From Dehalococcoidia bacterium (GTDB taxonomy: Bacteria; Chloroflexota; Dehalococcoidia; Lucifugimonadales; Australimonadaceae): 64,000 bases of DNA. Made by a program: the position numbers and the translations under genes. This document shows, piece by piece, positions 6,322 to 53,747 of this stretch. The notes under the pieces are model-generated. The model had not been told where the DNA came from. It ran no database searches and saw only the letters and a list, made by a program, of their open reading frames with translations. How positions within the stretch are numbered: position 1 is the first letter of the stretch; every line of letters begins with the position of its first letter. Location of the stretch: positions 95,252 through 159,251 of the forward strand of contig JAJEFD010000018.1 in NCBI GenBank assembly GCA_022820645.1, given 5' to 3'.

Positions 6322-7544
6322 GCGGCCCGTTCCATGGCAAGCGCGTACTCCTGGGCGTGAGCGGCAGCATCGCCGCCTACAAGGCCGCCGACCTCGCCAG
6401 CAAACTCACGCAGGGCGGCGCGAAGGTCGACGTGCTCATGACGTACTCCGCGACCCGGTTCGTAACGCCGCTCACCTTTCGCAGCATCACCCATCGCCCG
6501 GTGCTGACCGACCTGTTCGACCCGGATTCGCCGGAGGCGATAGAGCACGTTGCACTGGCACAAGCCGGGCACATCCTCGTCGTCGCCCCTGCGACGGCCC
6601 ACATGCTCGCGAAGCTCGCGCTCGGCCTGGCCGACGACCCCATCAGCGTGACCGCGCTGGCGACCGGCGCGCCACTGCTCATCGCCCCCGCGATGGACGC
6701 GAACATGTGGGAGCACCCCGCCGTCCGGCAGAACGTGAATACGCTCGTGGAGCGTGGCGCGGTCATCGTGGGGCCTGGCGAGGGGCGGCTCGCCTCCGGC
6801 CTCGTGGGCTGGGGACGGCTCGCCGAGACGCCCGAACTGCTCGGGCGCATCGCGCAGACGCTCGGCGCGAACGGCGACCTGCGCGGGCGGAGCATCGTCG
6901 TCAGCGCGGGGGGCACCCAGGAGCCGCTCGACCCCGTACGTGTGCTCACCAACCGCTCCTCGGGGAAGATGGGCTACGCCATCGCGGAGGCCGCGCGGGA
7001 CCGCGGCGCAGACGTAACGCTCGTAACTGCGCCCGCTGTGCTCGACCCTCCCGTCGGCGTGCGCGTCCAACGGGCCGAGACCGCGGAACAGATGCGCACC
7101 GCCGTCCAGGAGGCCGCCTGCTCCGCTGACGCCCTCGTGATGGCTGCTGCCGTCGCCGACTACCGCCCCACTGAGACCAGCAACGAAAAGATGAAGAAGG
7201 AAACGATGGCCGACCTCGTGCTCGCGCTGGAGCGCACCGAGGACATCATCGCCGCCGTGCCGGACGACATCGTGAAGGTTGCTTTCGCGGCTGAGAGCAG
7301 CGGGTTGCTCGAGAACGCCCGCGCCAAGCTACACTCCAAGGGAGCCGACCTCGTCGCAGCGAACGACATCACTCTCCCTGACGCAGGGTTCGGCTCGGAC
7401 CAGAACAAGGTCTGGCTCGTGGACGAGAGCGGGGACACTGAGCTGCCCCTCATGGCAAAATATGACGTAGCGATGGCAATCCTGGACCGTGTTGCAGCGC
7501 TGCTGGACGCAAATCGTCCCATAGAGAACTCGGAGGAGTGTTAA
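6318..7544 (+). CDS. coaBC: bifunctional phosphopantothenoylcysteine decarboxylase / phosphopantothenate--cysteine ligase
   Basis: 408 aa. N-terminal flavoprotein motif (LLGVSGSIAAYKAADL) plus a C-terminal ligase domain. Coupled to coaX. Confidence 0.9.
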   Translation: MSGPFHGKRVLLGVSGSIAAYKAADLASKLTQGGAKVDVLMTYSATRFVTPLTFRSITHRPVLTDLFDPDSPEAIEHVALAQAGHILVVAPATAHMLAKLALGLADDPISVTALATGAPLLIAPAMDANMWEHPAVRQNVNTLVERGAVIVGPGEGRLASGLVGWGRLAETPELLGRIAQTLGANGDLRGRSIVVSAGGTQEPLDPVRVLTNRSSGKMGYAIAEAARDRGADVTLVTAPAVLDPPVGVRVQRAETAEQMRTAVQEAACSADALVMAAAVADYRPTETSNEKMKKETMADLVLALERTEDIIAAVPDDIVKVAFAAESSGLLENARAKLHSKGADLVAANDITLPDAGFGSDQNKVWLVDESGDTELPLMAKYDVAMAILDRVAALLDANRPIENSEEC

Positions 7545-7840
7545 CTTTGTTCATCATCGCCGCCATCGGGGCACTGATCGCAGGCGGCTTCTTCTATTAC
7601 CGGGCGTACCGCGAGGCCCGTTTGTGGAGGGAAGTGCACGTCGTGTGGGGAGCAGCCCAGAAAGAGAAGGCCGTGGCCATCCACCACGAGTTGACCCAGC
7701 AGGGCATCAGGGCGCAACTCAAGACCACTTCCGCGTTCGACATCACCCGGTCCATGCCCCAGAGTCACGCCTCGATCCGGGTCCGTCGAGAGGACTTCAC
7801 CCGCGCCGCGCAGATCGTCCTCTCGCTGACGAGGGGATAG
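7538..7840 (+). CDS. hypothetical membrane-anchored protein
   Basis: 100 aa. GTG start overlaps the end of coaBC. One N-terminal TM helix (LTLFIIAAIGALIAGGFFYY) followed by a small soluble domain. Codon bias looks coding. Confidence 0.55.
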   Translation: MLTLFIIAAIGALIAGGFFYYRAYREARLWREVHVVWGAAQKEKAVAIHHELTQQGIRAQLKTTSAFDITRSMPQSHASIRVRREDFTRAAQIVLSLTRG

Positions 7841-9878: not shown

Positions 9879-10772
9879 GTGACCGCGACCGTTATCGATG
9901 GCAAGCTGATGGCCGAGGAGATACGCGGCGAGGTCGCCGAAGAGACGCGCGCGCTCACGGAGCGTTCAGGAATCACGCCCGGCCTGGCCGCAGTGCTCGT
10001 GGGCAGCGATCCCGCCTCCGCCGTCTACGTGCGCAACAAGCGCCGCGCCTGCGACGAGGCGGAGATGTTCAGCAAGACGTTCGAGTTGCCGGAGGAAACA
10101 ACCCAAGAAGAGCTGATCGCCCTGGTGCAGGAGCTCAACACGGACTCCCGGTTCCACGGCATCCTCGTCCAACTCCCGCTGCCCCCTCATATCGAGGAGC
10201 GGGAGGTCATCCTCGCCATAGACCCGGACAAGGACGTCGACGGGATGCACCCCATCAACGGCGGACGCCTGCTGGAGGGCAACCCACGTTTCCCCCCCGC
10301 GACTCCCGCGGGTGTGCAGCAGATGCTCGTTCGCACCGGCAACGACCCTGCGGGGAAGCACGTCGTCATCGTGGGGCGCAGCAATATCGTCGGTAAGCCG
10401 CTCTCCGTTCTACTCATGCAGAAGGCTCCCGGCGCGAACGCCACCGTGACCGTCTGCCACACCGGTACGCGCGACCTTGCCGCCCTCACCCTGCAGGCCG
10501 ACATCGTCGTCGCTGCGATAGGCAGGCCCCACGCCCTCACCGCCGACATGGTGGCCGATGGCGCGGTCGTGATAGACGTGGGCATCAACCGCGTAGACGA
10601 CGCGACACGAAAGTCCGGTTACCGGCTCGTGGGTGACGTGGACTATGACGCGGTCGCAGAGAAAGCGTCGGCCATCACTCCGGTGCCGGGCGGCGTCGGC
10701 CCCATGACCATCGCCATGCTGCTCACAAACACGCTCCGCGCGGCACGCTTCGCCGCCGGAGAGAGCGTCTGA
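9879..10772 (+). CDS. folD: bifunctional methylenetetrahydrofolate dehydrogenase / methenyl-THF cyclohydrolase
   Basis: Part of ORF 9444..10772. I place the start at the GTG (V146 of the track ORF), which gives VTATVIDGKLMAEEIR, the typical FolD N-terminus. GRSNIVGKP motif is present. Confidence 0.88.
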   Translation: MTATVIDGKLMAEEIRGEVAEETRALTERSGITPGLAAVLVGSDPASAVYVRNKRRACDEAEMFSKTFELPEETTQEELIALVQELNTDSRFHGILVQLPLPPHIEEREVILAIDPDKDVDGMHPINGGRLLEGNPRFPPATPAGVQQMLVRTGNDPAGKHVVIVGRSNIVGKPLSVLLMQKAPGANATVTVCHTGTRDLAALTLQADIVVAAIGRPHALTADMVADGAVVIDVGINRVDDATRKSGYRLVGDVDYDAVAEKASAITPVPGGVGPMTIAMLLTNTLRAARFAAGESV

Positions 10773-10791
10773 CCACCGGTCTGCCTGTGGC

Positions 10792-11253
10792 CTACCGCAC
10801 CTCGAACAGCGACTCGACCTCCACGGCAGCGCCGCCGGGCAGCGACCCCGCGCCGTAGGCCACGCGCGCGTGGCGTCCCGCCTCACCGAAGACCGCAACC
10901 ATCAGGTCTGAGAAGCCGTTGATCACCTGCGGTTGCTGTGTGTAGTCCGGGGTAGCGTTCACCAGCCCCATCACCCGCACGACGCGCACGACGTTATCGA
11001 GGTCGCCGATCTCCCGCTTCGCTACCGCGAGCGCGGAGAGCCCGCAAACGCGCGCCGCGTTGTACGCGTCGTCCACGTCCATGTCCGCCCCGACCTTGCC
11101 GGTGATCATCGCTCCGTCCGCGTCGCGCGGCACCTGCCCCGCCACGTACAACAGGTTGCCCGTGCGAACGGCGGGAACGTAGTTCGCCACCGGAGTCGAC
11201 ACCTGCGGCAACTCCAACCCCAACTCCTGCAGACGGTCCTCGGCAACTGACAC
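10792..11253 (-). CDS. RidA/YjgF family reactive-intermediate deaminase-like protein
   Basis: C-terminal 153 aa of ORF 10792..11343. GTG start is preceded by AAGAGG. YjgF-like pattern (NLLYVAGQVP ... GAAVEVE). Confidence 0.8.
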   Translation of the reverse strand: MSVAEDRLQELGLELPQVSTPVANYVPAVRTGNLLYVAGQVPRDADGAMITGKVGADMDVDDAYNAARVCGLSALAVAKREIGDLDNVVRVVRVMGLVNATPDYTQQPQVINGFSDLMVAVFGEAGRHARVAYGAGSLPGGAAVEVESLFEVR

Positions 11254-11386
11254 GGCGCAACACCTCTTGGGAGATCGGGGCAACACGCCCCGCGCGACGA
11301 TGATATCACCCGCTGCCCTGCGTCCCCACGACGCGCCTGCCATGCGTAGAATAGCGCCGCATCCCGCCGATCAGCGGAGGCTACGC

Positions 11387-13006
11387 ATGGAGAACAGCGT
11401 CTTCTACCAGAACCTGGAGCCGTTCTCGTTCCTGGAGCGGAGCGCGTTCGTCTACCCGGACAAACCCGCCGTCATCCATGGAGAGCGTGTCTACACCTAC
11501 TCCGAGTTGCGCAAACGCGTAAACCGGCTTGCCGGAGCGCTGAAGAGCGCGGGGGTCGGCAAGGGCGACCGCGTCGCGTTCATCGTGCCGAACCTTCCGC
11601 CGCTGCTGGAGGCGCACTACGGCCCCATGAGCATCGGCGCGGCGCTCGTCGCCATCAACACGCGCCTCTCCCCGCGCGAGATCGCCTACATCCTCAACCA
11701 CTCGAAGGCGAAGGTGCTCGTGTTCGACTCCGAGTTCGCGCCCACCGTCCGCCAGGTGCGGGACGAGGTCCCCGGCGTATCGCTCTACGTGCAGGTCGTC
11801 GACGAGGTCCCGCGCGCCGACGATATCCCCGGCCCGGAGTACGAGGAGTTCCTCGCGTCGGCGCCGGACGGAGAGCACCGCGACCCCATCGCATCCGAAA
11901 TGGACATCATCACGGTCAACTACACATCCGGAACCACGGGGATGCCAAAGGGGGTGCAGTACCACGCCCGCGGCGCGTACCTCAATGCGCTCGGCGAGGT
12001 CATCGAGACCGGATTGAACTGGCGCAGCGTCTATCTCTGGACACTCCCCATGTTCCACTGCAACGGCTGGTGCCACACGTGGGCCGTGACCGCCGTCGGC
12101 GGTACGCACGTCTGCCTCCGCCGCGTCGACCCCGCCGAGGTCTACCGGCTCATCGAGCGGCACGGGGTCACGAACATGTGCGGCGCGCCCACGGTGCTCA
12201 CGGGCATGTACTCCTCGCCCGCCGCAGAGGGACAGGACCTCTCCGGGCTCACCATCGCCACCGGCGGGGCGCCGCCCGCCCCGCAAGTCGTCCGCACGAT
12301 GGAGGGCATGGGCGCGAACATCATCCACCTCTACGGCCTCACCGAGACCTTCGGCCCTATCACGCTCTGCGTGCCCCAGCTGGAGTGGGACGACATGACG
12401 GCGGAGGAGCGCGCGTTCGCCAAGGCAAAGCAGGGCGTGCCCTACGTTCACGCGGGCACCGGCCTCCGCGTCGTCGACGAGCAGATGAACGACGTGCCGC
12501 GCGACGGCGAGACGATGGGCGAGGTCGTCATGCGCTCCAACGGCGTCATGGCGGGCTACCTGGACGACCCGGACGCGACGGCGAAGGCGTTCTCGGGCGG
12601 CTGGTTCCACTCCGGCGACCTCGGCGTGTGGCACCCGGACGGTCAGATCGAACTGAAGGACCGCGCGAAGGACGTCATCATCTCCGGCGGGGAGAACATC
12701 TCCAGCCAGGAGGTGGAGAAGGTCATCATGGAGCACCCGGGCGTGCTGGAGGTCTCCGTGATCGCCGTGCCTGACGACCGCTGGGGCGAGACGCCCAAAG
12801 CGTTCATCACGCCACGGGAGGGCGCAGCGCTCACCGCCGAGGAAGTCATCGCCTTCTGCCGCGACCGCATCGCGCACTTCAAGGCCCCGCGCCACGTCGA
12901 GTTCGGCGACCTCCCCAAGACGGCGACCGGCAAGATCCAGAAGTATGTGCTCCGCGAGCGCGAGTGGGCAGGCCGCGAGTCCCGGGTGCAAGGGTCGCAG
13001 CGGTGA
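11387..13006 (+). CDS. AMP-dependent acyl-CoA synthetase/ligase
   Basis: ATG at 11387 is preceded by GGAGG. AMP-binding motif YTSGTTGMPKGV and a C-terminal GKIQK lysine motif. 539 aa. Confidence 0.88.
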   Translation: MENSVFYQNLEPFSFLERSAFVYPDKPAVIHGERVYTYSELRKRVNRLAGALKSAGVGKGDRVAFIVPNLPPLLEAHYGPMSIGAALVAINTRLSPREIAYILNHSKAKVLVFDSEFAPTVRQVRDEVPGVSLYVQVVDEVPRADDIPGPEYEEFLASAPDGEHRDPIASEMDIITVNYTSGTTGMPKGVQYHARGAYLNALGEVIETGLNWRSVYLWTLPMFHCNGWCHTWAVTAVGGTHVCLRRVDPAEVYRLIERHGVTNMCGAPTVLTGMYSSPAAEGQDLSGLTIATGGAPPAPQVVRTMEGMGANIIHLYGLTETFGPITLCVPQLEWDDMTAEERAFAKAKQGVPYVHAGTGLRVVDEQMNDVPRDGETMGEVVMRSNGVMAGYLDDPDATAKAFSGGWFHSGDLGVWHPDGQIELKDRAKDVIISGGENISSQEVEKVIMEHPGVLEVSVIAVPDDRWGETPKAFITPREGAALTAEEVIAFCRDRIAHFKAPRHVEFGDLPKTATGKIQKYVLREREWAGRESRVQGSQR

Positions 13007-13209
13007 AACGAACCTTCACGGCGAGCGTGTGGCCGGAAGAGCACCGGTACGTAGCACAGGCGCTGGAGGCCGACGTAGCCAGCCAAGGCGAGTCCGTCGA
13101 CGAGGCGCTTGCGAACCTCCGCGAGGCGCCGCAGTTGCACCTTGAACCACCCCTGGCCTCAATCCTACCCAAACTCCACTACATCGAGGTAGAAGTTCCG
13201 GCGGGTTAG
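13003..13209 (+). CDS. HicB-like antitoxin-family small protein (no adjacent toxin)
   Basis: The GTG at 13003 overlaps the synthetase stop (GTGA). The 68-aa product (FTASVWPEEHRYVAQALEADVASQGESVDEALANLREA) resembles short HicB/UPF0150-type antitoxins as I recall them. Confidence 0.5.
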   Translation: MKRTFTASVWPEEHRYVAQALEADVASQGESVDEALANLREAPQLHLEPPLASILPKLHYIEVEVPAG

Positions 13210-13236
13210 GCCAGTCCCACCGCGACGCGCTCCCCC

Positions 13237-13935
13237 TTACGCCTCGGGGAAGGCCTCGAGGTGCTCGGCGAGCTCGTCCAGGTGCATCACGTCGGCGTAC
13301 TTGTGGTGCATGTCGAACAGGTTGACCTTGTGCGACAGCTGGGCGCGGTCGTAGACGCACTCCTCGGCGATGACAACGTGGAAGCCGTTGGAGTAGGCAT
13401 CGGCGACCGAGGCACGGACGCAGCCGCTCGTGCTCTCGCCGCAGACCAGCACCGTGTCGACGCCCATCTGCACGAGCTGTGCCACCAGCGGCGTCCCGTA
13501 GAACCCGCTCGCGCGCTGCTTGTAGATGATGAGGTCCTCCGGCTCCGGCGCGAACGCCTCGTAGATGCCGAACGGGTTCTCGCCCTGGTTCCTCGCGCGG
13601 CGGTTCGTCGACTTCAGGCGGTTCGGGCGCGCCTCCGGCCGGTCCTCGCCCGTCGTGTAGACGACGGGGAAGCCGCGGGCCCGCGCCATCGCGAACAGCT
13701 GCTTGGTCGGCTCGATGGCGTTCCACGCGTACTCGCCGCATGCGCTCGGGAACTCCTTCGCGACCTCGTGAACCGGCAGCGGGCCGCCCTGGTACGCCGA
13801 GTTGTAGAGATCGATCGCCAGAATCGCCGGACGCCGTCCGACGAATAGTTCGCGCTGGTAGTGCTTGTAGAGCTCGATATCCTCCGCGCTCACCACGTCC
13901 TGCCAGCAGTGGTCCTCGAAGCCGTATGTAGCCAT
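13237..13935 (-). CDS. isochorismatase-family cysteine hydrolase
   Basis: 232 aa with the catalytic Cys context VLVCGESTSGCVRASV. Confidence 0.85.
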   Translation of the reverse strand: MATYGFEDHCWQDVVSAEDIELYKHYQRELFVGRRPAILAIDLYNSAYQGGPLPVHEVAKEFPSACGEYAWNAIEPTKQLFAMARARGFPVVYTTGEDRPEARPNRLKSTNRRARNQGENPFGIYEAFAPEPEDLIIYKQRASGFYGTPLVAQLVQMGVDTVLVCGESTSGCVRASVADAYSNGFHVVIAEECVYDRAQLSHKVNLFDMHHKYADVMHLDELAEHLEAFPEA

Positions 13936-14026
13936 TGTCCGCCTCCTGTCGCCCGGATGCGCGCATTATACGTCCGCTGCCGTTGCCGTGGTGCGCTACA
14001 ATCCCGGCGCAGCAGGAGGTGGCAGG

Positions 14027-15277
14027 ATGCTCACGCAGCAGGAGAACGAACGCCTCACGCAGGTCGGGCCGGGGACGCCGATGGGCGAGCTCATGCGCCG
14101 CTACTGGCACCCCATCGCCGCCGCCGCAGAGATGGACGAGCGCCCCACCAAGCCGGTGCGCCTGCTCGGCGAGGACCTCGTGCTCTACAAGGACAAGTCC
14201 GGCACCCTCGGGCTAATCGACCGCTTCTGCCCCCACCGCCGCGTTGACCTCTCCTACGGCATACCAGAGGAGCACGGGCTGCGCTGCATGTACCACGGAT
14301 GGATGATGGACGAGAGCGGTCAGTGCATCGAGCAGCCATTCGAGGAGACCGTCCATCCAGACGGGCGTTTCAAGGAGAAGGTGAAGGTCACCGCCTACCC
14401 GGTCGAGGAGCTCAGCGGACTGCTGTTCGCCTACATGGGCCCGCTGCCCGCGCCCCTCGTCCCGCGCTGGGACCTGTTCGTGACCGACCACGCGTGGCGC
14501 GACATCGGCTTCACGATGCTGCCCTGCAACTGGCTGCAGTGCCAGGAGAACTCAGCCGACCCCGTCCACGCCGAATGGCTGCACGGCGTCTACGGCTGGT
14601 ACCTCGCGCAGAAGACCGGCGAGGAGGTGCCGCCGTGGCGCAAGGCGATGATGCGCCCCCACCAGCGCATCGGCTTCGAGCAGTTCGCCAACGGCGTCTT
14701 CAAGAAGCGCATCGTCGAGGGCAGCACCGAGGAGGACGACATCTGGAAGATCGGCCACCCGTGGGTGTTCCCCAACATCCTCCGCTCCACGACCGGCACG
14801 ACGAGCACCGAGTTCCAGATCCGCGTGCCGGTCGACGACGAGAACACGCTGCACGTCGTGTACACGCGCTACCAGTTCCCGCCGGGGGTGGAGGTGCCGC
14901 CGCAGGAGACGGTGCCGTACTACGAGATCCCGCTCTACGACGCGAACGGGGAGCTGAACGTGGAGCTGCCGCTGGTGCAGGACTTCATGGCATGGGTGAC
15001 GCAGACACCCATCGCCGACCGCACGCGAGAGAAGCTCGGCGAGTCCGACACCGGCGTCATCCTGCTGCGCAAGATGCTGAACGAGGCGATGGAGACGGTC
15101 GCGGACGGCGGCGACCCGATGAACGTGTTCCGCGACCCGGCGACGAACCAGTGCATCGAGATGACGCAGGAGAAGGTGTACTACACGCCGGACCGGAACC
15201 AGGCGCGGATGATCTACTACGGCCACCAGGCCTACAACCCCAAGATCGACGAGATCGTGGCGATGTTCCCGGAGTAG
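14027..15277 (+). CDS. Rieske [2Fe-2S] non-heme-iron oxygenase, alpha-subunit type (paralogue 1)
   Basis: ATG at 14027 follows AGGAGG. Rieske motif CPHRRVDLSYG...LRCMYHGW and iron motif NSADPVHAEWLH. 416 aa. Confidence 0.88.
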   Translation: MLTQQENERLTQVGPGTPMGELMRRYWHPIAAAAEMDERPTKPVRLLGEDLVLYKDKSGTLGLIDRFCPHRRVDLSYGIPEEHGLRCMYHGWMMDESGQCIEQPFEETVHPDGRFKEKVKVTAYPVEELSGLLFAYMGPLPAPLVPRWDLFVTDHAWRDIGFTMLPCNWLQCQENSADPVHAEWLHGVYGWYLAQKTGEEVPPWRKAMMRPHQRIGFEQFANGVFKKRIVEGSTEEDDIWKIGHPWVFPNILRSTTGTTSTEFQIRVPVDDENTLHVVYTRYQFPPGVEVPPQETVPYYEIPLYDANGELNVELPLVQDFMAWVTQTPIADRTREKLGESDTGVILLRKMLNEAMETVADGGDPMNVFRDPATNQCIEMTQEKVYYTPDRNQARMIYYGHQAYNPKIDEIVAMFPE

Positions 15278-49240: not shown

Positions 49241-49423
49241 TCAGCCGAGCGTCCCGATCTCTTCCGCCTGCTTGTCACTCACGATCCTGATGACCTTGCT
49301 GGACGGGTCCTCCGCCGCTACACCGCGGACTGCCTTCCGTCCGTTCTTCAGGGTCACCAACTCCGGGTCCTTGATGGCCACCATCTTCTTCAGCTTCACC
49401 GAGTAGGCCGTCAGATCTACCAT
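49241..49423 (-). CDS. small basic protein, apparently a Cys-less relative of the DUF5679-type zinc-ribbon family
   Basis: 60 aa from the ATG at 49423, preceded by TAAGGAGGAGAGC. YSVKLKKMVAIKDPELVTLKNGRKAVRGVAAEDPSSKVIRI aligns, as I recall the family, to YCVKCK...V.MKNGR.A..G.CP.CGT..FRI, with all four Cys replaced. Confidence 0.6.
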   Translation of the reverse strand: MVDLTAYSVKLKKMVAIKDPELVTLKNGRKAVRGVAAEDPSSKVIRIVSDKQAEEIGTLG

Positions 49424-49436
49424 GCTCTCCTCCTTA

Positions 49437-49742
49437 CTATTGGGTTTCCTGCGTATCCAGATCCACCAGGAAGCTGGCATCGTCCGGGTCGAGGTCGACG
49501 AGCACTGCATTGAACTCAGCGTCCGCCTCCTCGGGGTCGAGCTGGTGCTCCGCCGCGTTGGCCGCGATAGCCGCGAAGTTGAGCAGCTCATCCAGTTCGA
49601 GCCCGCGCGACTCCGGGTAGAGCGGCGTCACGAAGCCTCCGTCGGCCGTCCGCTCCCGGCAGTCCACGCACTTCTCGTCGCATACTCCGCAGTCCAACGT
49701 ATGGTCTGCGTCGATGCGCTCTGGTTCGCCGTACCACTTCAT
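49437..49742 (-). CDS. hypothetical highly acidic protein with an N-terminal CxxCxxxCxxC cluster
   Basis: 101 aa. ATG follows GGGGAGG. DCGVCDEKCVDC, then an Asp/Glu-rich tail. 13 nt upstream of the next gene. Confidence 0.65.
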   Translation of the reverse strand: MKWYGEPERIDADHTLDCGVCDEKCVDCRERTADGGFVTPLYPESRGLELDELLNFAAIAANAAEHQLDPEEADAEFNAVLVDLDPDDASFLVDLDTQETQ

Positions 49743-49812
49743 CGCACACCTCCCCGTTCCATACGGCAGCCGCCATTCGTACTGCGGCCGCCGTATGGCC
49801 GTTGCTGGCCGA

Positions 49813-52092
49813 TCAGGAGCACTCCATCGCGGCGCGGAGGCTCTTCAGGTTGTCGCGCATCAGGCCGAGGTAGTCGCCGTGCTCGTCCAGTTCAGCCTGG
49901 GTAACGCTCTCTATCGAGTGGATCTTGTAGATGCCGGCCCCTGTCTCGCTGGCGAGCGACCGTTCGTTCTCACCGGAGAGCACGGGCTCGAGCAGCACTG
50001 CCGTGATGCCGAGTTCCTTGATGCGGTCGGCGATGCTCGCGAGGCGCTGCGGGGACGGCTCTGCTTCCGGGGAGAGGCCGGCGATCCCCACTTGTTCCAG
50101 GTCGTAGGCCAGCGCCAGATAGCCGTATGCAGAGTGAGACGTGACGAACTCGCGGTGGGCGCACGAGCTGAGGCCCGCCTCGAACTCGGCGTGCAGCGCC
50201 CGGAGATCTGCCGCGAGCGCGGCCAGGTTCGTCCGGTAGGTGTCCGCGCCATCGGGGTCCGCCTCGATCAGCGCTTCGGCGATGCGTTCCGCCTGGGTGA
50301 TGGCGCGCAGCGGGTCCAGCCAGAAGTGCGGGTCGAACTCCCCATGTCCGTGGTCGTCCTCTTCCCCGTGTCCATGGTCGTCCTCGTCCTCGTGGCCATG
50401 CTCGTCCTCGTGACCGGCTGCGGGGGCGTCGGACCCCTCCATGATGCCGACGAAGGCGATACCGGTCGGCGAACCGCCGACGTCCCAGACCTCCTCCACC
50501 TCGAGGTGTTCGAGATCGAGGGAGATGACCTCGCCGTGTTCGGGGTTCGTGAGGAACATCGTCTCGCCGACGATGATGAGACGGGGCCGGCCCTCACCCG
50601 GTTCCATGACGTGGATGTGCGTGATCTCGTCGCCGTCGTGGGCGTCGAGCACGTGCAGTTCGCCTTCGGCGGTCAGCAGGTAGAGGCGCTCGCCGTGCGC
50701 GCCGACACCACCGGACGCGATGGGCTCGGCGAACACCTGCCGGAACTCGCCCGACTCCGGATCGATCAGCCAGATGCCGTCGTCGGCGAAGCCCTGCCCG
50801 TCGAAGTAGGAGGCGCGACCGAAGAAGTGGTGCAGGTCGTGGTGCCCGAAGAAAGAGCCGATGCGCGAGTCCTCACGCATGCCGGGCGGGTTGTCGATGA
50901 ACTCGTGGCGGTAGCTGCCGCCGTCCGGGTACAGGAAGAGCACGCCGCCAACGCAGCCGAAGATGGCCCCTTCTTCGTTGTGGGTCTCGCCGTGCATGCC
51001 GGGGCAGGAGCCGTTGCTGGCGTCATAGACGACCTCGTCGTCGAAGGTACGGACCTCAACACCGACGGGGAGGGTGCTTTCCGTTTTCTCGGGATAGTCG
51101 GGGTTTACGGTGGTCACAACGATGTGGTCGGGCGAGATCGCCAGGGCAGCGCCGTGCTGCGTGTCGCCGGTCTCGAACAAGATCGGCTGGTAGTCGCCCT
51201 GTGTGCCGGTGATCTCCTCCTCGTTGTAGAAGTAGGCGTGGCCGTGAGCGTCAGCGAACACTGCCGTCCAGCCGTAGGTGTTGACGAAGTGGATCGGCCG
51301 TTCATCCGTCACCACAGAGGGGTGGCGCGAGACGGGCTCACGTACGAGGTCGAAGTGGTCGCCGTGCTCGACGAGGTAGACGCCGCCGTCGAAGAGGTGG
51401 ATGCCGTCATCGGCGTCTCCCGGGCCGCGGGCGAGGACGAAGGCGTAGCGGTGGGTTGGGCTGGGGTATATGGCGGCCGGCGGGGCACCGATGTCGAAGG
51501 CGCCGGCGTCGAGTTCCTCTGTTGAGAGATCGAGAACCGAGAGGTGCTGCGCCTCGAGGTCCGCGATGAGCAGGCGCCCGTCGAAGGATGCCTCTTCTCC
51601 GTGGCCGTGCTCGCCCTCTTCCGCTTCCATGTGCCCGTGCTCGTCCTCGTGGCCGTGACCGTCTTCTTCGAACGGCAGTGCCCCCTCGGCTGCTGCAGCC
51701 TCGACCACGATACCGGAGAGGTCGTTGCCCAGGGACTCGAGCGCGCGCTCCAGCCAGGGCAACAGGCTGAGGCCGTTTATCGCTACGACGTCGGCCTCGG
51801 CGATCGTGAGGAGGTCACTCGCCGTGAGTTCGAACGAGTGGGCCTCGACGCCGGGGTGCACGATGGTCTCGACGTTCACGCGGTCGCCGCCGATGCGCTT
51901 GGCGAAGTACTGCATGGGGTAGATGCTCGCCACCACGCTCAGCGGCTCGGAGGCCACCTCGGTGGGAGTAGCCGTTGCGACGGCTGGAACAGACGTCGCG
52001 GTGGGCTCGGGATCCTCCGAGCAAGCGACGACCGCCATCGCCATGAGCGCGGCGATGAACAACAGACGCGAACTAATGAGATGAAGTCTCAT
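49813..52092 (-). CDS. ZnuA/TroA-family metal-binding lipoprotein with a ~390-aa propeller-like domain inserted in the His-rich loop
   Basis: ATG at 52092 follows GGAGG (track ORF begins at 52110). Lipobox MAMAVVAC. SBP N-lobe (VVASIYPMQYFAKRIGGD...GVEAHSFE) and C-lobe (DPHFWLDP, FVTSHSAYGYLA, ITAVLLEP). Between the lobes are two His/Asp/Glu tracts flanking residues ~175-562 (nt ~50425-51588). Confidence 0.85.
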   Translation of the reverse strand: MRLHLISSRLLFIAALMAMAVVACSEDPEPTATSVPAVATATPTEVASEPLSVVASIYPMQYFAKRIGGDRVNVETIVHPGVEAHSFELTASDLLTIAEADVVAINGLSLLPWLERALESLGNDLSGIVVEAAAAEGALPFEEDGHGHEDEHGHMEAEEGEHGHGEEASFDGRLLIADLEAQHLSVLDLSTEELDAGAFDIGAPPAAIYPSPTHRYAFVLARGPGDADDGIHLFDGGVYLVEHGDHFDLVREPVSRHPSVVTDERPIHFVNTYGWTAVFADAHGHAYFYNEEEITGTQGDYQPILFETGDTQHGAALAISPDHIVVTTVNPDYPEKTESTLPVGVEVRTFDDEVVYDASNGSCPGMHGETHNEEGAIFGCVGGVLFLYPDGGSYRHEFIDNPPGMREDSRIGSFFGHHDLHHFFGRASYFDGQGFADDGIWLIDPESGEFRQVFAEPIASGGVGAHGERLYLLTAEGELHVLDAHDGDEITHIHVMEPGEGRPRLIIVGETMFLTNPEHGEVISLDLEHLEVEEVWDVGGSPTGIAFVGIMEGSDAPAAGHEDEHGHEDEDDHGHGEEDDHGHGEFDPHFWLDPLRAITQAERIAEALIEADPDGADTYRTNLAALAADLRALHAEFEAGLSSCAHREFVTSHSAYGYLALAYDLEQVGIAGLSPEAEPSPQRLASIADRIKELGITAVLLEPVLSGENERSLASETGAGIYKIHSIESVTQAELDEHGDYLGLMRDNLKSLRAAMECS

Positions 52093-52125
52093 ACGTGGTA
52101 CCTCCAGCAACTATCCGTTGGGGTT

Positions 52126-52626
52126 TCAATGTGAATGCACGCGGGCCCTGTGCACGTGGATGTCTCCGCCGCCCTGATCGCTCTCCCGGCAGACAGCGCA
52201 GCGGTGGTACAGCTCCAGCCGGTGCCCGACGAGTTCGCCCTCCACGTGGGACCTCATGGCGCGGAGCATCCGTTCGATGGAAGGATGGCGGAACTCCTCG
52301 ATGCGTTCGCAGACGACACAGACGAGGTGATGGTGGTGGTGTGCCTCGTCCAGCGAGTAGCGCGGCGAACCATCCGGCATGGTGGTCTTGCAGAGGACAC
52401 CCGCCTCCCCGAGCAGGCGCAGGGTGCGGTAGACGGTCGCCCGGCCCAGGGTCGGCAACGCGGCTACGATCTCCTCGGCGCTGAACGAGTCATTCCGCCG
52501 AGCGAGCATCCTCGCCAGTTGACGGCGCGGCCAGGTCATGCGGCTGCCATGCTCCTCCAACGCCGCAAGGATGTTGGACTCGGTCTGCATGACCGCGCTG
52601 GCCGATTTCGTCGAGGCCGTCGCCAT
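52126..52626 (-). CDS. zur: Fur-family metalloregulator (Zur-like)
   Basis: 166 aa. wHTH (GRATVYRTLRLLGEAGVL), a HHHHH run, and CVVCERIEE ... CAVC structural-zinc pairs. It sits directly upstream of the ZnuA-type gene. The Zur assignment is by context only. Confidence 0.8.
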   Translation of the reverse strand: MATASTKSASAVMQTESNILAALEEHGSRMTWPRRQLARMLARRNDSFSAEEIVAALPTLGRATVYRTLRLLGEAGVLCKTTMPDGSPRYSLDEAHHHHHLVCVVCERIEEFRHPSIERMLRAMRSHVEGELVGHRLELYHRCAVCRESDQGGGDIHVHRARVHSH

Positions 52627-52633
52627 GACTCAG

Positions 52634-52672
52634 ACGGTAGCGATGCCTTTGCACACTGTCAATACTTAGTAT
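52634..52672 (-). promoter_or_regulatory. candidate promoter (TTGACA-17-TACCGT) giving a near-leaderless zur mRNA, with an adjacent AT-rich 5-1-5 palindrome
   Basis: On the minus strand: TTGACA (52662-52657), a 17-nt spacer, TACCGT (52639-52634), then 7 nt to the ATG at 52626. There is no SD. The palindrome ATACTtAGTAT (52662-52672) abuts the -35 element. Confidence 0.3.
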
Positions 52673-52724
52673 CAATAATGACCAGGAATGATACCACTGC
52701 CTGTCGTTCCGCAGGCGAAGGGTA

Positions 52725-53747
52725 TCAGGCGGGTTTGCGGGCGTGCACGAAGTACATGGGGGTGAAGATGCCGAGCTTGCCTGCCTCCACCATGGCCGCT
52801 GCGCAGAGTTCCAGCGTACCCGCCACCCGGACCGCTCCCTGCGGCACGATGCGGAGCTTCTCGAGCACCCTCAGCGAGTTGGCGGTGACCAGACGCCCGA
52901 CCTTCGAGCTGCGGAAGCTGGCGAAGGAGACCCCGGAACCAGACAGCGGTTGATACCACGGGACCGACGGGCCGGTCTGCACGGCAAGGTCCCGCGTCTC
53001 CAGCACCTCGAACCCGACCGACCGGAGCGCGTCGTCAACCGTCGGGCGGTCGTCGATCACGAGCAGGCCGCCTCCCAGTTGGATGTCGGCCTTGAGCTTG
53101 AGGTGGACGGGGTCCTGAGGGTCGAAACGGTCGGTCATGCAGTATTCGTACGCAGCGAAGCACGCTCCCGGCTTGAGCAGACGAAAGATCTCGCCATAGA
53201 TGCCGGGCTTGTCCGGCGCACAGCAGGTCGCCTCGATGGAGTAGACGGCGTCGAACGAGTCGTCCGGAGCATCGACGTGCAAGAAGTCGCAGTGGAGGAA
53301 CCCAGCCAGGTGGGCCAGCCCCGCCTCCTCCACGTATCTCCGCGCGCGGTCGACCTGGTAGCCGTTGCTGTTCACGCCAACGATCCGGGCGCCGGAGAAG
53401 CGGGCGATCTCCATCATCGGCCCGCCGACACCGCAACCGATGTCGGCGGCGACCATGCCGGGCCTGAGTTCGAGCTTGTGCGCCACGTAGTGCTCGTGAC
53501 GTGCGAGCGACGCCTTGAAGCTCTCTCCGGGGACGCGCGGCGCAAAGTGGAAGGACCTGCCCCACCCGTACTCGTAGAAGTCCGAAACCAGGTCGTAGTA
53601 GAGGTTGTTGAAGGTCTTGTAGCCGGCCTCATCATCCTCCGAACTGCGCCTCGTTGTCTTGAATCGCTCTTCGTATTCACCGACGGCCGCATCAGCATCG
53701 GAGGCGATCTCTTTGTCCTTCAGCAGGCTGGAGAGACGGAATGGCAT
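52725..53747 (-). CDS. sterol 24-C-methyltransferase (ERG6/SMT1-like) homologue
   Basis: 340 aa, colinear with eukaryotic SMTs. NNLYYDLVSDFYEYGWGRSFHF (SMT region I), DIGCGVGGP (SAM motif), YSIEATCCAP (region II), YEYCMTD (region III), and a C-terminal sterol-MT domain (VPWYQPL ... FTPMYFVHARKP). Confidence 0.88.
   Translation of the reverse strand: MPFRLSSLLKDKEIASDADAAVGEYEERFKTTRRSSEDDEAGYKTFNNLYYDLVSDFYEYGWGRSFHFAPRVPGESFKASLARHEHYVAHKLELRPGMVAADIGCGVGGPMMEIARFSGARIVGVNSNGYQVDRARRYVEEAGLAHLAGFLHCDFLHVDAPDDSFDAVYSIEATCCAPDKPGIYGEIFRLLKPGACFAAYEYCMTDRFDPQDPVHLKLKADIQLGGGLLVIDDRPTVDDALRSVGFEVLETRDLAVQTGPSVPWYQPLSGSGVSFASFRSSKVGRLVTANSLRVLEKLRIVPQGAVRVAGTLELCAAAMVEAGKLGIFTPMYFVHARKPA

Follow-up and report, generated by a model that had tools for sequence, protein, structure and literature searches.

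Cluster A-I zinc-binding proteins, which serve ATP-binding cassette (ABC) importers, are associated in several bacteria with accessory proteins that recruit zinc. In the AztABCD system of Proteobacteria and Actinobacteria, the accessory protein is AztD, a free periplasmic zinc chaperone that has been solved from Paracoccus denitrificans (6ck1; PdAztD) and Citrobacter koseri (6cmk and 6n01), and its partner is the binding protein AztC. In Gram-negative bacteria, ZnuA and ZinT are also two separate periplasmic proteins that associate non-covalently, the His-rich loop of the binding protein being the contact and transfer element for the accessory zinc protein. AdcA of Streptococcus pneumoniae is a single lipoprotein, in which a ZnuA-like part carries a C-terminal ZinT part of lipocalin-like fold; it works by a 'trap-door' mechanism (PMC7858048). 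The gene described here lies in a 64,000-nucleotide stretch of a Dehalococcoidia bacterium (assembly GCA_022820645.1, contig JAJEFD010000018.1, positions 95,252 to 159,251), referred to below as the window, and its product is almost certainly a zinc-type binding protein with an AztD domain inserted into it.

The AztD-AztC pair has two elements that recur in this protein. AztD is an eight-bladed beta-propeller with two zinc sites. In PdAztD, site 1, formed by H124, H167 and H218, lies in the pore, binds zinc with sub-nanomolar affinity and cannot transfer it to AztC, whereas site 2 is the only site that passes zinc to AztC (PMC6689063). Its ligands are H99, H102 and D104 of a hairpin with the motif H99-G-x-H102-x-D104, together with H408 near the C-terminus, and it sits on an extension built from this hairpin and the N- and C-terminal strands (PMC6689063). 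H408 is kept in only 68 % of AztDs, and a disulfide connects C214 with C231 (PMC6689063). On the side of the binding protein, a loop rich in His, Asp and Glu marks zinc specificity in cluster A-I proteins; the corresponding loop of AztC, the 'D-loop', contains three His that are essential for the receipt of zinc from AztD (PMC7463823), and it extends into the pore of AztD in the published docking model (PMC7463823, PMC6689063). A 2021 review tabulates AztC and AztD only as separate periplasmic proteins.

Architecture of the fused protein

The gene is an uninterrupted open reading frame (ORF) of 759 residues counted from an ATG, with its stop codon at 49813-49815. Its parts, given from the N-terminus after the gene as a whole, are the following.

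49813..52092, minus strand: the whole gene, encoding a lipoprotein of 759 residues in which an AztD propeller is inserted into a zinc-binding protein of cluster A-I (ORF list, Pfam ZnuA, NCBIfam AztC and AztD)
52021..52092, minus strand: predicted signal peptide and lipobox, residues 1-24 (...AVVAC), read from the sequence and modelled as an N-terminal helix
51955..52020, minus strand: disordered tether rich in Pro, Thr and Ala, residues 25-46 (predicted local distance difference test, pLDDT, below 50)
51688..51954, minus strand: N-lobe, residues 47-135, with the predicted zinc ligand His85 in GVEAH, aligning with the N-lobes of AdcA and YcdH
51583..51687, minus strand: linker 1, residues 136-170, acidic, His-rich (6 His) and disordered (sequence; pLDDT below 50 at 135-168)
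50440..51582, minus strand: AztD-type beta-propeller, residues 171-551 (381 residues), from the NCBIfam AztD model, PDB matches, Foldseek and invariant ligands
50335..50439, minus strand: linker 2, residues 552-586, acidic, His-rich and disordered (sequence; pLDDT below 50 at 553-584)
49816..50334, minus strand: C-lobe, residues 587-759, with the predicted ligands His589 (DPH), His653 (SHS) and Glu728 and the inter-lobe helix 594-641 (Pfam, AdcA alignment, model)

The insert resembles AztD in sequence, predicted fold and zinc ligands. The NCBIfam hidden Markov model (HMM) of AztD, NF038015, covers residues 177-548 with positions 2-354 of its 356 (E 1.6e-35, 122.5 bits), and sequence comparison with the PDB matches the whole length of both solved AztDs (6cmk, 9e-17; 6ck1, 2e-13). 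The AlphaFold model was computed from a family alignment of 88 relatives, from which all conservation counts given here are also taken. It shows the insert as a confident, all-beta domain (pLDDT 70-96) of about 34 strands in 8 groups, and a Foldseek search against the PDB places AztD crystal structures at every one of ranks 1-9 (lowest E 6e-27; template modelling score, TM, 0.78-0.81 when normalised to AztD; identity about 20-24 %). The site-2 hairpin, residues 238-265, is modelled with low confidence, and the apo form of free AztD is also disordered at site 2 (PMC6689063).

When aligned to PdAztD, site 1 corresponds to H268, H313 and H367, and site 2 to H243, H246 and D248 within H243-G-D-H246-F-D248 (H-x2-H-x-D). 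All six residues are invariant (88/88), the Gly of the site-2 motif being kept in 70 of the 88. C363 and C380 are equally invariant, have the 17-residue spacing of C214 and C231 in PdAztD, and form a putative disulfide. H561, kept in 81 of the 88 relatives, is the first His to follow the final strand of the propeller; it is a candidate fourth ligand of site 2, where it would stand in for H408.

The binding protein on both sides of the insert is complete. Pfam ZnuA (PF01297), whose gathering cut-off is 29 bits, matches far above it with E 7.5e-81 and 271.9 bits. The match is broken into two stretches at profile position 86/87, the second of which covers residues 565-755 and starts at profile position 87 (profile 87-263). 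In Pfam, which apparently holds no AztD family, there is no significant match between these two stretches, and a sub-threshold PQQ_2/BamB propeller hint was not accepted as an identity for the insert. H85, H589 and H653 of the binding site are invariant (88/88), and E728 aligns with the Glu of 'LESL' in AdcA. Both lobes are confident in the AlphaFold model (pLDDT about 88-97 for the lobes, and about 77-96 over residues 47-135 of the N-lobe), with the long inter-lobe helix modelled as helices 594-611 and 613-641. Holo AztC (5w57) spans both lobes in the Foldseek alignment (TM 0.78), which predicts a normal reassembly of the split binding protein. NCBIfam AztC (NF040870) is the top-scoring binding-protein model (E 1.8e-50), while the best PDB sequence matches of the lobes are AdcA, YcdH and Synechocystis ZnuA, with AdcA at the top and PdAztC far lower. 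By sequence, this cluster A-I protein of zinc type is nearer to AdcA and YcdH than to AztC.

The insertion point is the His/Asp/Glu-rich loop immediately before the DPH ligand, and the insert is bounded on each side by a His-rich tract. Tract 1, EEDGHGHEDEHGHMEAEEGEHGHGEE, covers residues 142-167, with His at 146, 148, 152, 154, 162 and 164, and tract 2, GHEDEHGHEDEDDHGHGEEDDHGHGE, covers residues 560-585, with His at 561, 565, 567, 573, 575, 581 and 583. The family medians are 28 residues with 7 His for linker 1 and 42 residues with 10 His for linker 2. Linker 2 aligns both with the native His-rich loop of AdcA and with the His tail at the C-terminus of C. koseri AztD. Linker 1 is similar to a His tract that PMC6689063 describes at the N-terminus of P. 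denitrificans AztD. At the end of linker 2, H581-G-H583-G lies 6-8 residues before the ligand H589, and H581, H583 and G584 are invariant. Because the termini of AztD are neighbouring strands, the propeller could be spliced into the loop without strain, and because these adjacent terminal strands carry site 2, the transfer-competent site would be placed beside the binding cleft.

An earlier note, made from the letters of this DNA, had described a ZnuA-type protein with intact N- and C-lobes and the expected ligand contexts, whose acquisition loop is interrupted by repeated, propeller-like beta-strand blades resembling AztD between two His-rich tracts. The ZnuA match and the three invariant His bear out the lobes, and the profile split just before the DPH ligand bears out the loop; the all-beta model with its 8 strand groups, the two solved AztDs, the nine best fold matches and the invariant ligands and cysteines agree with the propeller and its kinship. 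Both tracts are present, and the quoted motifs were all located, at 81 (GVEAHSFE), 587 (DPHFW), 652 (SHSAYGY), 243 (HGDHFD) and 266 (PIHF) in the 759-residue numbering. DPHFW had been placed at about residue 593, a number counted from a TTG that has to be corrected to 587 from the ATG, which the note's own gene coordinates use. The insert limits, given as nt ~50425-51588, were found at nt 50440-51582 (residues 171-551). The HMM search and the full-length structure prediction that the note had proposed gave an end-to-end match to the AztD model and a confident propeller between the two lobes.

Set beside the described systems, the insert shares with AztD the fold, the full-length HMM match, the ligands of both sites, the cysteine pair, the His-rich tails at its termini, and the association with a cluster A-I binding protein and with Fur and CobW genes. 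It differs in being a domain inside its own partner rather than a free periplasmic protein, in its low identity and sub-cut-off score, in having H561 at the start of a linker in place of a C-terminal His408, and in its host, which is a member of the Chloroflexota. The binding-protein part shares with AztC and ZnuA the Pfam match, the three His ligands, the long inter-lobe helix and the His/Asp/Glu loop before DPH, and the genes of its relatives are encoded with those of an ABC-3 permease and an ATPase; unlike AztC and ZnuA, it has this loop interrupted by a 381-residue folded domain, is a predicted lipoprotein with a disordered tether, and scores below the cut-offs. Like AdcA, the protein joins a zinc-binding protein and a zinc-recruiting module in a single lipoprotein, but the module is an AztD propeller in the loop instead of a C-terminally appended ZinT. 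Relative to the ZnuA-ZinT pair, the connection is covalent and the accessory fold is a different one, although some relatives of the fusion carry ZinT as well, inserted in the loop.

Relatives, loop variants and gene context

Among 5.8 billion proteins searched, 339 relatives were found, and the order N-lobe, AztD, C-lobe was found in 114 of the 120 best database clusters. Additionally, a scan of species-representative genomes yielded at least 317 loci encoding relatives; the best 80 of these loci are all from Chloroflexota metagenome-assembled genomes (MAGs) of Dehalococcoidia and Caldilineaceae, several of them complete chromosomes, and in all 80 the AztD propeller lies inside the matched gene. 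The database search for long loop insertions that the earlier note had suggested thus finds this architecture abundant in Chloroflexota. In databases the relatives go under generic names, for example 'zinc ABC transporter substrate-binding protein', an annotation that hides the AztD architecture. Many of the isolate names (APA_, RHO, COS, IRC, SB06xx, PNGco) presumably denote sponge-microbiome bins.

The unusual length of the ORF is the one feature that could suggest an assembly chimera, or a pseudogene joining two genes, and such an origin can be dismissed with near certainty. The same unbroken architecture recurs in the 114 clusters, in the 80 loci and in complete chromosomes, and this conservation across independent assemblies refutes a chimeric assembly. 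The GC content at third codon positions (GC3) of the fusion gene is 0.85, typical of the genome's genes and of its neighbours, and either half of the binding protein alone would be non-functional.

The closest relatives among the matches listed come from a Dehalococcoidia MAG (L001/L002; 79-84 % protein identity), which is 96 % identical to the window in nucleotides over a block of about 1.6 kb further downstream that contains CoA-binding and TPR genes. In L001, L002, L004 and L009, two fusion genes in tandem take the place of the single one in the window. In L001 the tandem copies lie at 10001-12241 and 12432-14768, and the window protein is 83 % identical to the second.

The contents of the loop vary among relatives, and one AztD, two AztDs, ZinT, two ZinTs, and ZinT with AztD have been observed. 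Two propellers are found in P0018 (1216 residues), L042 and L081. A second lineage of about 50 clusters has the same insertion with a propeller that is just ~30 % identical (P0146, P0150, P0157, P0160, P0170 and P0237); its loops can also contain ZinT (P0320 and P0321), two ZinT stretches (P0322), or ZinT followed by AztD (P0161, P0276 and P0299). The protein at 1779-4466 of L085 is listed with the ZinT-bearing loop proteins of this lineage; in the window protein, no ZinT domain was found with Pfam. Other proteins have no binding-protein domain, including an AztD-ZinT fusion (P0326) and tandem AztDs with two propellers in about 990 residues (P0021 and P0022) or five in 2432 residues (P0179). 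Tandem propellers without a binding-protein domain also occur in P0135 (680 residues), and His-rich spacers separate the propellers in these tandem proteins. AztD and a TIGR03769 'anchored repeat' domain occur together in one protein of the Verrucomicrobiales.

Among 151 representatives of the AztD family, 127 are propeller-only, and the fusions to a binding protein are all loop insertions, none being end to end. In a neighbour-joining tree of the propeller domains, the insertion proteins fall into at least two deep lineages with free AztDs interleaved; the tree is crude, with long branches and no support values, and hints at more than one gain or loss of the insertion. A Caldilineaceae chromosome (L082) encodes both a plain binding protein (6467-7615, 382 residues) and a fused one (10001-12370), whose genes flank the ATPase and permease genes, one on each side. 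Their lobes are 88-93 % identical, and the plain paralogue has a ~60-residue (DEDEHG)n loop where the fused one carries the propeller. This pair points to a recent duplication, to gene conversion, or to gain or loss of the propeller, and in having fused and plain binding proteins in one locus it resembles the AdcA/AdcAII pair of pneumococci.

From these variants it may be proposed, tentatively and with more doubt than confidence, that cluster A-I zinc-binding proteins have in their His-rich loop a general 'socket' for zinc-recruitment modules, which were inserted there repeatedly and in combination. If so, nature would have trapped the transient transfer complex of AztC and AztD covalently in these fusions, and they would reveal how zinc is relayed between proteins, with the multi-module versions as relay chains.

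Gene context was counted within 10 kb of the fusion gene in 84 sequences, namely 83 fetched loci and the window. An ABC ATPase gene is present in 63 of them and an ABC-3 permease gene in 54, both often immediately downstream of the fusion; a Fur-family gene is present in 47, and a CobW/COG0523 gene in 16. Most commonly the genes follow one another as Fur, fusion, ATPase and permease, the stop codon of one gene overlapping the start codon of the next. In the clade of the window (L001-L014), the locus usually consists of a Fur-family gene with one or two tandem fusion genes only, the Fur-family gene standing directly upstream of the fusion, a position that it has in 22 loci and the window among the sequences examined; the clade member L010 has a second operon, with genes for Fur, a plain binding protein, an ATPase and a permease, 1.5 kb downstream. 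In the window, the upstream region contains two elements.

52126..52626, minus strand: Fur-family regulator of 166 residues with a His5 run and two CxxC motifs (Pfam FUR, 9.1e-26), Zur-like by context
52660..52675, minus strand: inverted repeat TTGATACtaaGTATTG, operator-like, on the 5' side of the Fur-family gene; it overlaps a hexamer, TTGACA, that resembles a -35 box (sequence)

The Fur-family gene is on the same strand as the fusion gene and ends 33 nt upstream of it. The inverted repeat occurs once in the window, against 0.05 occurrences expected by chance, and in other clades the palindrome takes the form TTGATAC-N3-GTATC ahead of the Fur genes. An auto-regulated, Zur-type operator is a plausible reading of TTGATACtaaGTATTG, and it is this conserved palindrome, together with gene context, that suggests a Zur-like role for the regulator.

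Proposed zinc hand-off and competing explanations

A role in zinc uptake is very probable for this protein. The model favoured overall, which is considered likely as a whole, combines lipid-anchored zinc capture under Zur control, hand-off inside the molecule, and an ABC importer as partner. The protein would be a cell-surface receptor, held by a lipid anchor at the predicted lipidation site Cys24 (kept in 87 of the 88 relatives) and by its flexible tether, for an importer of the ZnuABC/AztABC type. The disordered His/Asp/Glu-rich linkers and site 2 of the AztD domain would gather scarce zinc from the surroundings. Site 2 (H243, H246, D248 and probably H561) would be tethered near the mouth of the cleft (H85, H589, H653 and E728), with linker 2 leading from the site-2 region into H589 and its HGHG located where AztC and ZnuA have the essential loop His. 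By exchange of ligands, zinc would then travel along the HGHG end of linker 2, or past it, to the binding site H85/H589/H653(/E728), and the zinc-loaded binding protein would dock on a permease of the ZnuBC/AztAB type. The co-transcribed Fur-family (Zur-like) repressor probably shuts the operon off when zinc is sufficient. Taken by itself, the passage of zinc from site 2 to the binding site of the same molecule is on balance favoured, with less assurance than the role in uptake.

Chloroflexota are generally regarded as single-membraned. The fusion of a chaperone to its receptor would suit cells without a confining periplasm, which is the usual account of AdcA in Gram-positive bacteria (PMC7858048).

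Several observations weigh against the favoured model. Both HMM scores lie below their curated cut-offs, the AztD score against 400 bits and the AztC score, 171.9 bits, against 350; the AdcA model NF033605 (147.6 bits against 700) and the ZnuA equivalog of NCBIfam likewise remain below theirs, and by sequence the insert and the binding-protein part are relatives, not equivalogs, of AztD and AztC. An acidic residue at the position of E728 is found in just 13 of the 88 relatives, all in the clade of the window. The relative orientation of the domains is not confidently predicted (predicted template modelling score, pTM, 0.53). An assignment of the Fur-family protein to Zur by HMM was tried and rejected, all NCBIfam scores being below cut-off and those of Fur/PerR above that of Zur. 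Finally, no ABC-3 permease or ABC ATPase gene was found in the 64-kb window by Pfam on 30 further large ORFs and by permease and ATPase queries against all six-frame ORFs, so that the partner transporter of the window gene is inferred from relatives.

The propeller could instead be mainly a zinc store, buffer or antenna, with zinc reaching the binding site through solution or the linkers and not directly from site 2; the tight site 1 and the His-rich linkers would raise the capacity and the capture radius of a surface protein. Site 1 is invariant, although its counterpart in PdAztD is unable to pass zinc on to AztC, the plain paralogue of L082, with near-identical lobes and its ~60-residue DEDEHG loop, suggests that a loop alone can serve, and the multi-propeller proteins P0021, P0022 and P0179 do without a binding-protein domain altogether. 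Such a role without transfer is nevertheless judged unlikely. The ligands of site 2 are as invariant as those of site 1, and all binding-protein fusions found are insertions at this loop and never end-to-end joins, a pattern that implies a need for geometric proximity rather than mere co-localisation. It is also conceivable that the window copy is an orphan without an ABC importer, which would sequester zinc at the surface, for instance in competition within a dense host-associated community, or only occasionally serve a distant transporter as a spare; the window without transporter genes and the reduced loci of its clade fit this picture. Against it stand the complete transporter operon 1.5 kb downstream in L010, the position of the fusion inside a transporter operon in most other clades, and the full conservation of the binding-protein His ligands. 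Moreover, binding proteins encoded apart from their own transporter are common, and the orphan explanation is given a low probability. A metal other than zinc (Mn, Fe, Ni, Co or Cu) is more improbable still. Cluster A-I proteins include Mn and Fe binders, MntC-type NCBIfam models also give scores for the binding-protein part, and HMMs give no assignment of the Fur-family regulator to Zur; however, a three-His site with a His/Asp/Glu loop is a zinc signature (PMC7463823), AztD with the same ligands is a zinc chaperone (PMC6689063), and CobW/COG0523 and ZinT co-occur in relatives. Specificity for zinc is the expectation under the favoured model of capture and intramolecular hand-off.

A one-polypeptide device for zinc capture and hand-off had been envisaged in the earlier note. 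The fusion by insertion is upheld by the domain and fold evidence, but the concept as such is not new, since AdcA already fuses ZnuA to ZinT. The claim that the architecture is undescribed holds in part: no description of an AztD-binding protein fusion was found in the searchable literature (most subscription journals and the InterPro architecture tables lay outside the search), yet databases contain the architecture many times over, under generic names and from hundreds of Chloroflexota genomes. The AdcA principle, AztD and AztC were known beforehand; what is new, as far as found, is an AztD inserted in the loop, widespread in sequence data and unrecognised in annotation.

Direct protein-to-protein transfer of zinc is poorly understood, and the AztD-AztC complex is transient and has been pictured by a docking model only. 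A natural tether at the loop, combined with the site implicated in transfer, would provide a stable object for structural and kinetic work, and the fusion constitutes an independent evolutionary test of the docking model. That the loop of a binding protein can host a folded domain of 380 residues is relevant to binding-protein engineering and biosensor design. The fusion further extends the principle of AdcA to a second, unrelated chaperone fold in another phylum.

Start site and neighbouring genes

Two short features border the coding sequence of the fusion gene.

52101..52105, minus strand: Shine-Dalgarno sequence GGAGG, 8 nt 5' of the ATG at 52092 (sequence read)
49760..49798, minus strand: GC-rich hairpin with a 15-bp stem directly 3' of the stop codon, terminator-like and without a U tract (-37.1 kcal/mol, z-score -4.1)

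The position of GGAGG 8 nt upstream makes the ATG at 52092 the likely start; the TTG at 52110 is an unlikely one, as it lies upstream of GGAGG and has no Shine-Dalgarno sequence of its own. Downstream of the gene, a gap of lower GC content (about 0.60) contains small minus-strand ORFs encoding a Cys-rich protein of 101 residues (49437-49742) and one of about 60 residues (49242-49423); an overlapping ORF of 116 residues in the region 49242-49742 has no Pfam match. Comparable genes occur at the same place in L001, with DNA that is ~82-90 % alike. A remnant of a second tandem fusion gene was considered for the lower-GC interval at 48.7-49.8 kb and rejected, as tblastn matched just the end of the existing gene.

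Directly upstream of the Fur-family gene, 52725-53747 on the minus strand encodes a 340-residue S-adenosylmethionine-dependent methyltransferase with a Sterol_MT_C domain (PF08498, E 6.8e-23). It is a sterol C-24 methyltransferase-like gene in a member of the Chloroflexota, and it has no counterpart at this position in L001.

In L082 (12643-16352) and 13 other Caldilineaceae loci, a gene for a protein of ~390 residues with no Pfam match is followed by genes for a CobW/COG0523 protein and a WD40-type propeller. In these loci the set adjoins the genes of the fusion and the transporter, and in L082 it comes immediately after the fusion gene; it may belong to a wider zinc-starvation gene set.

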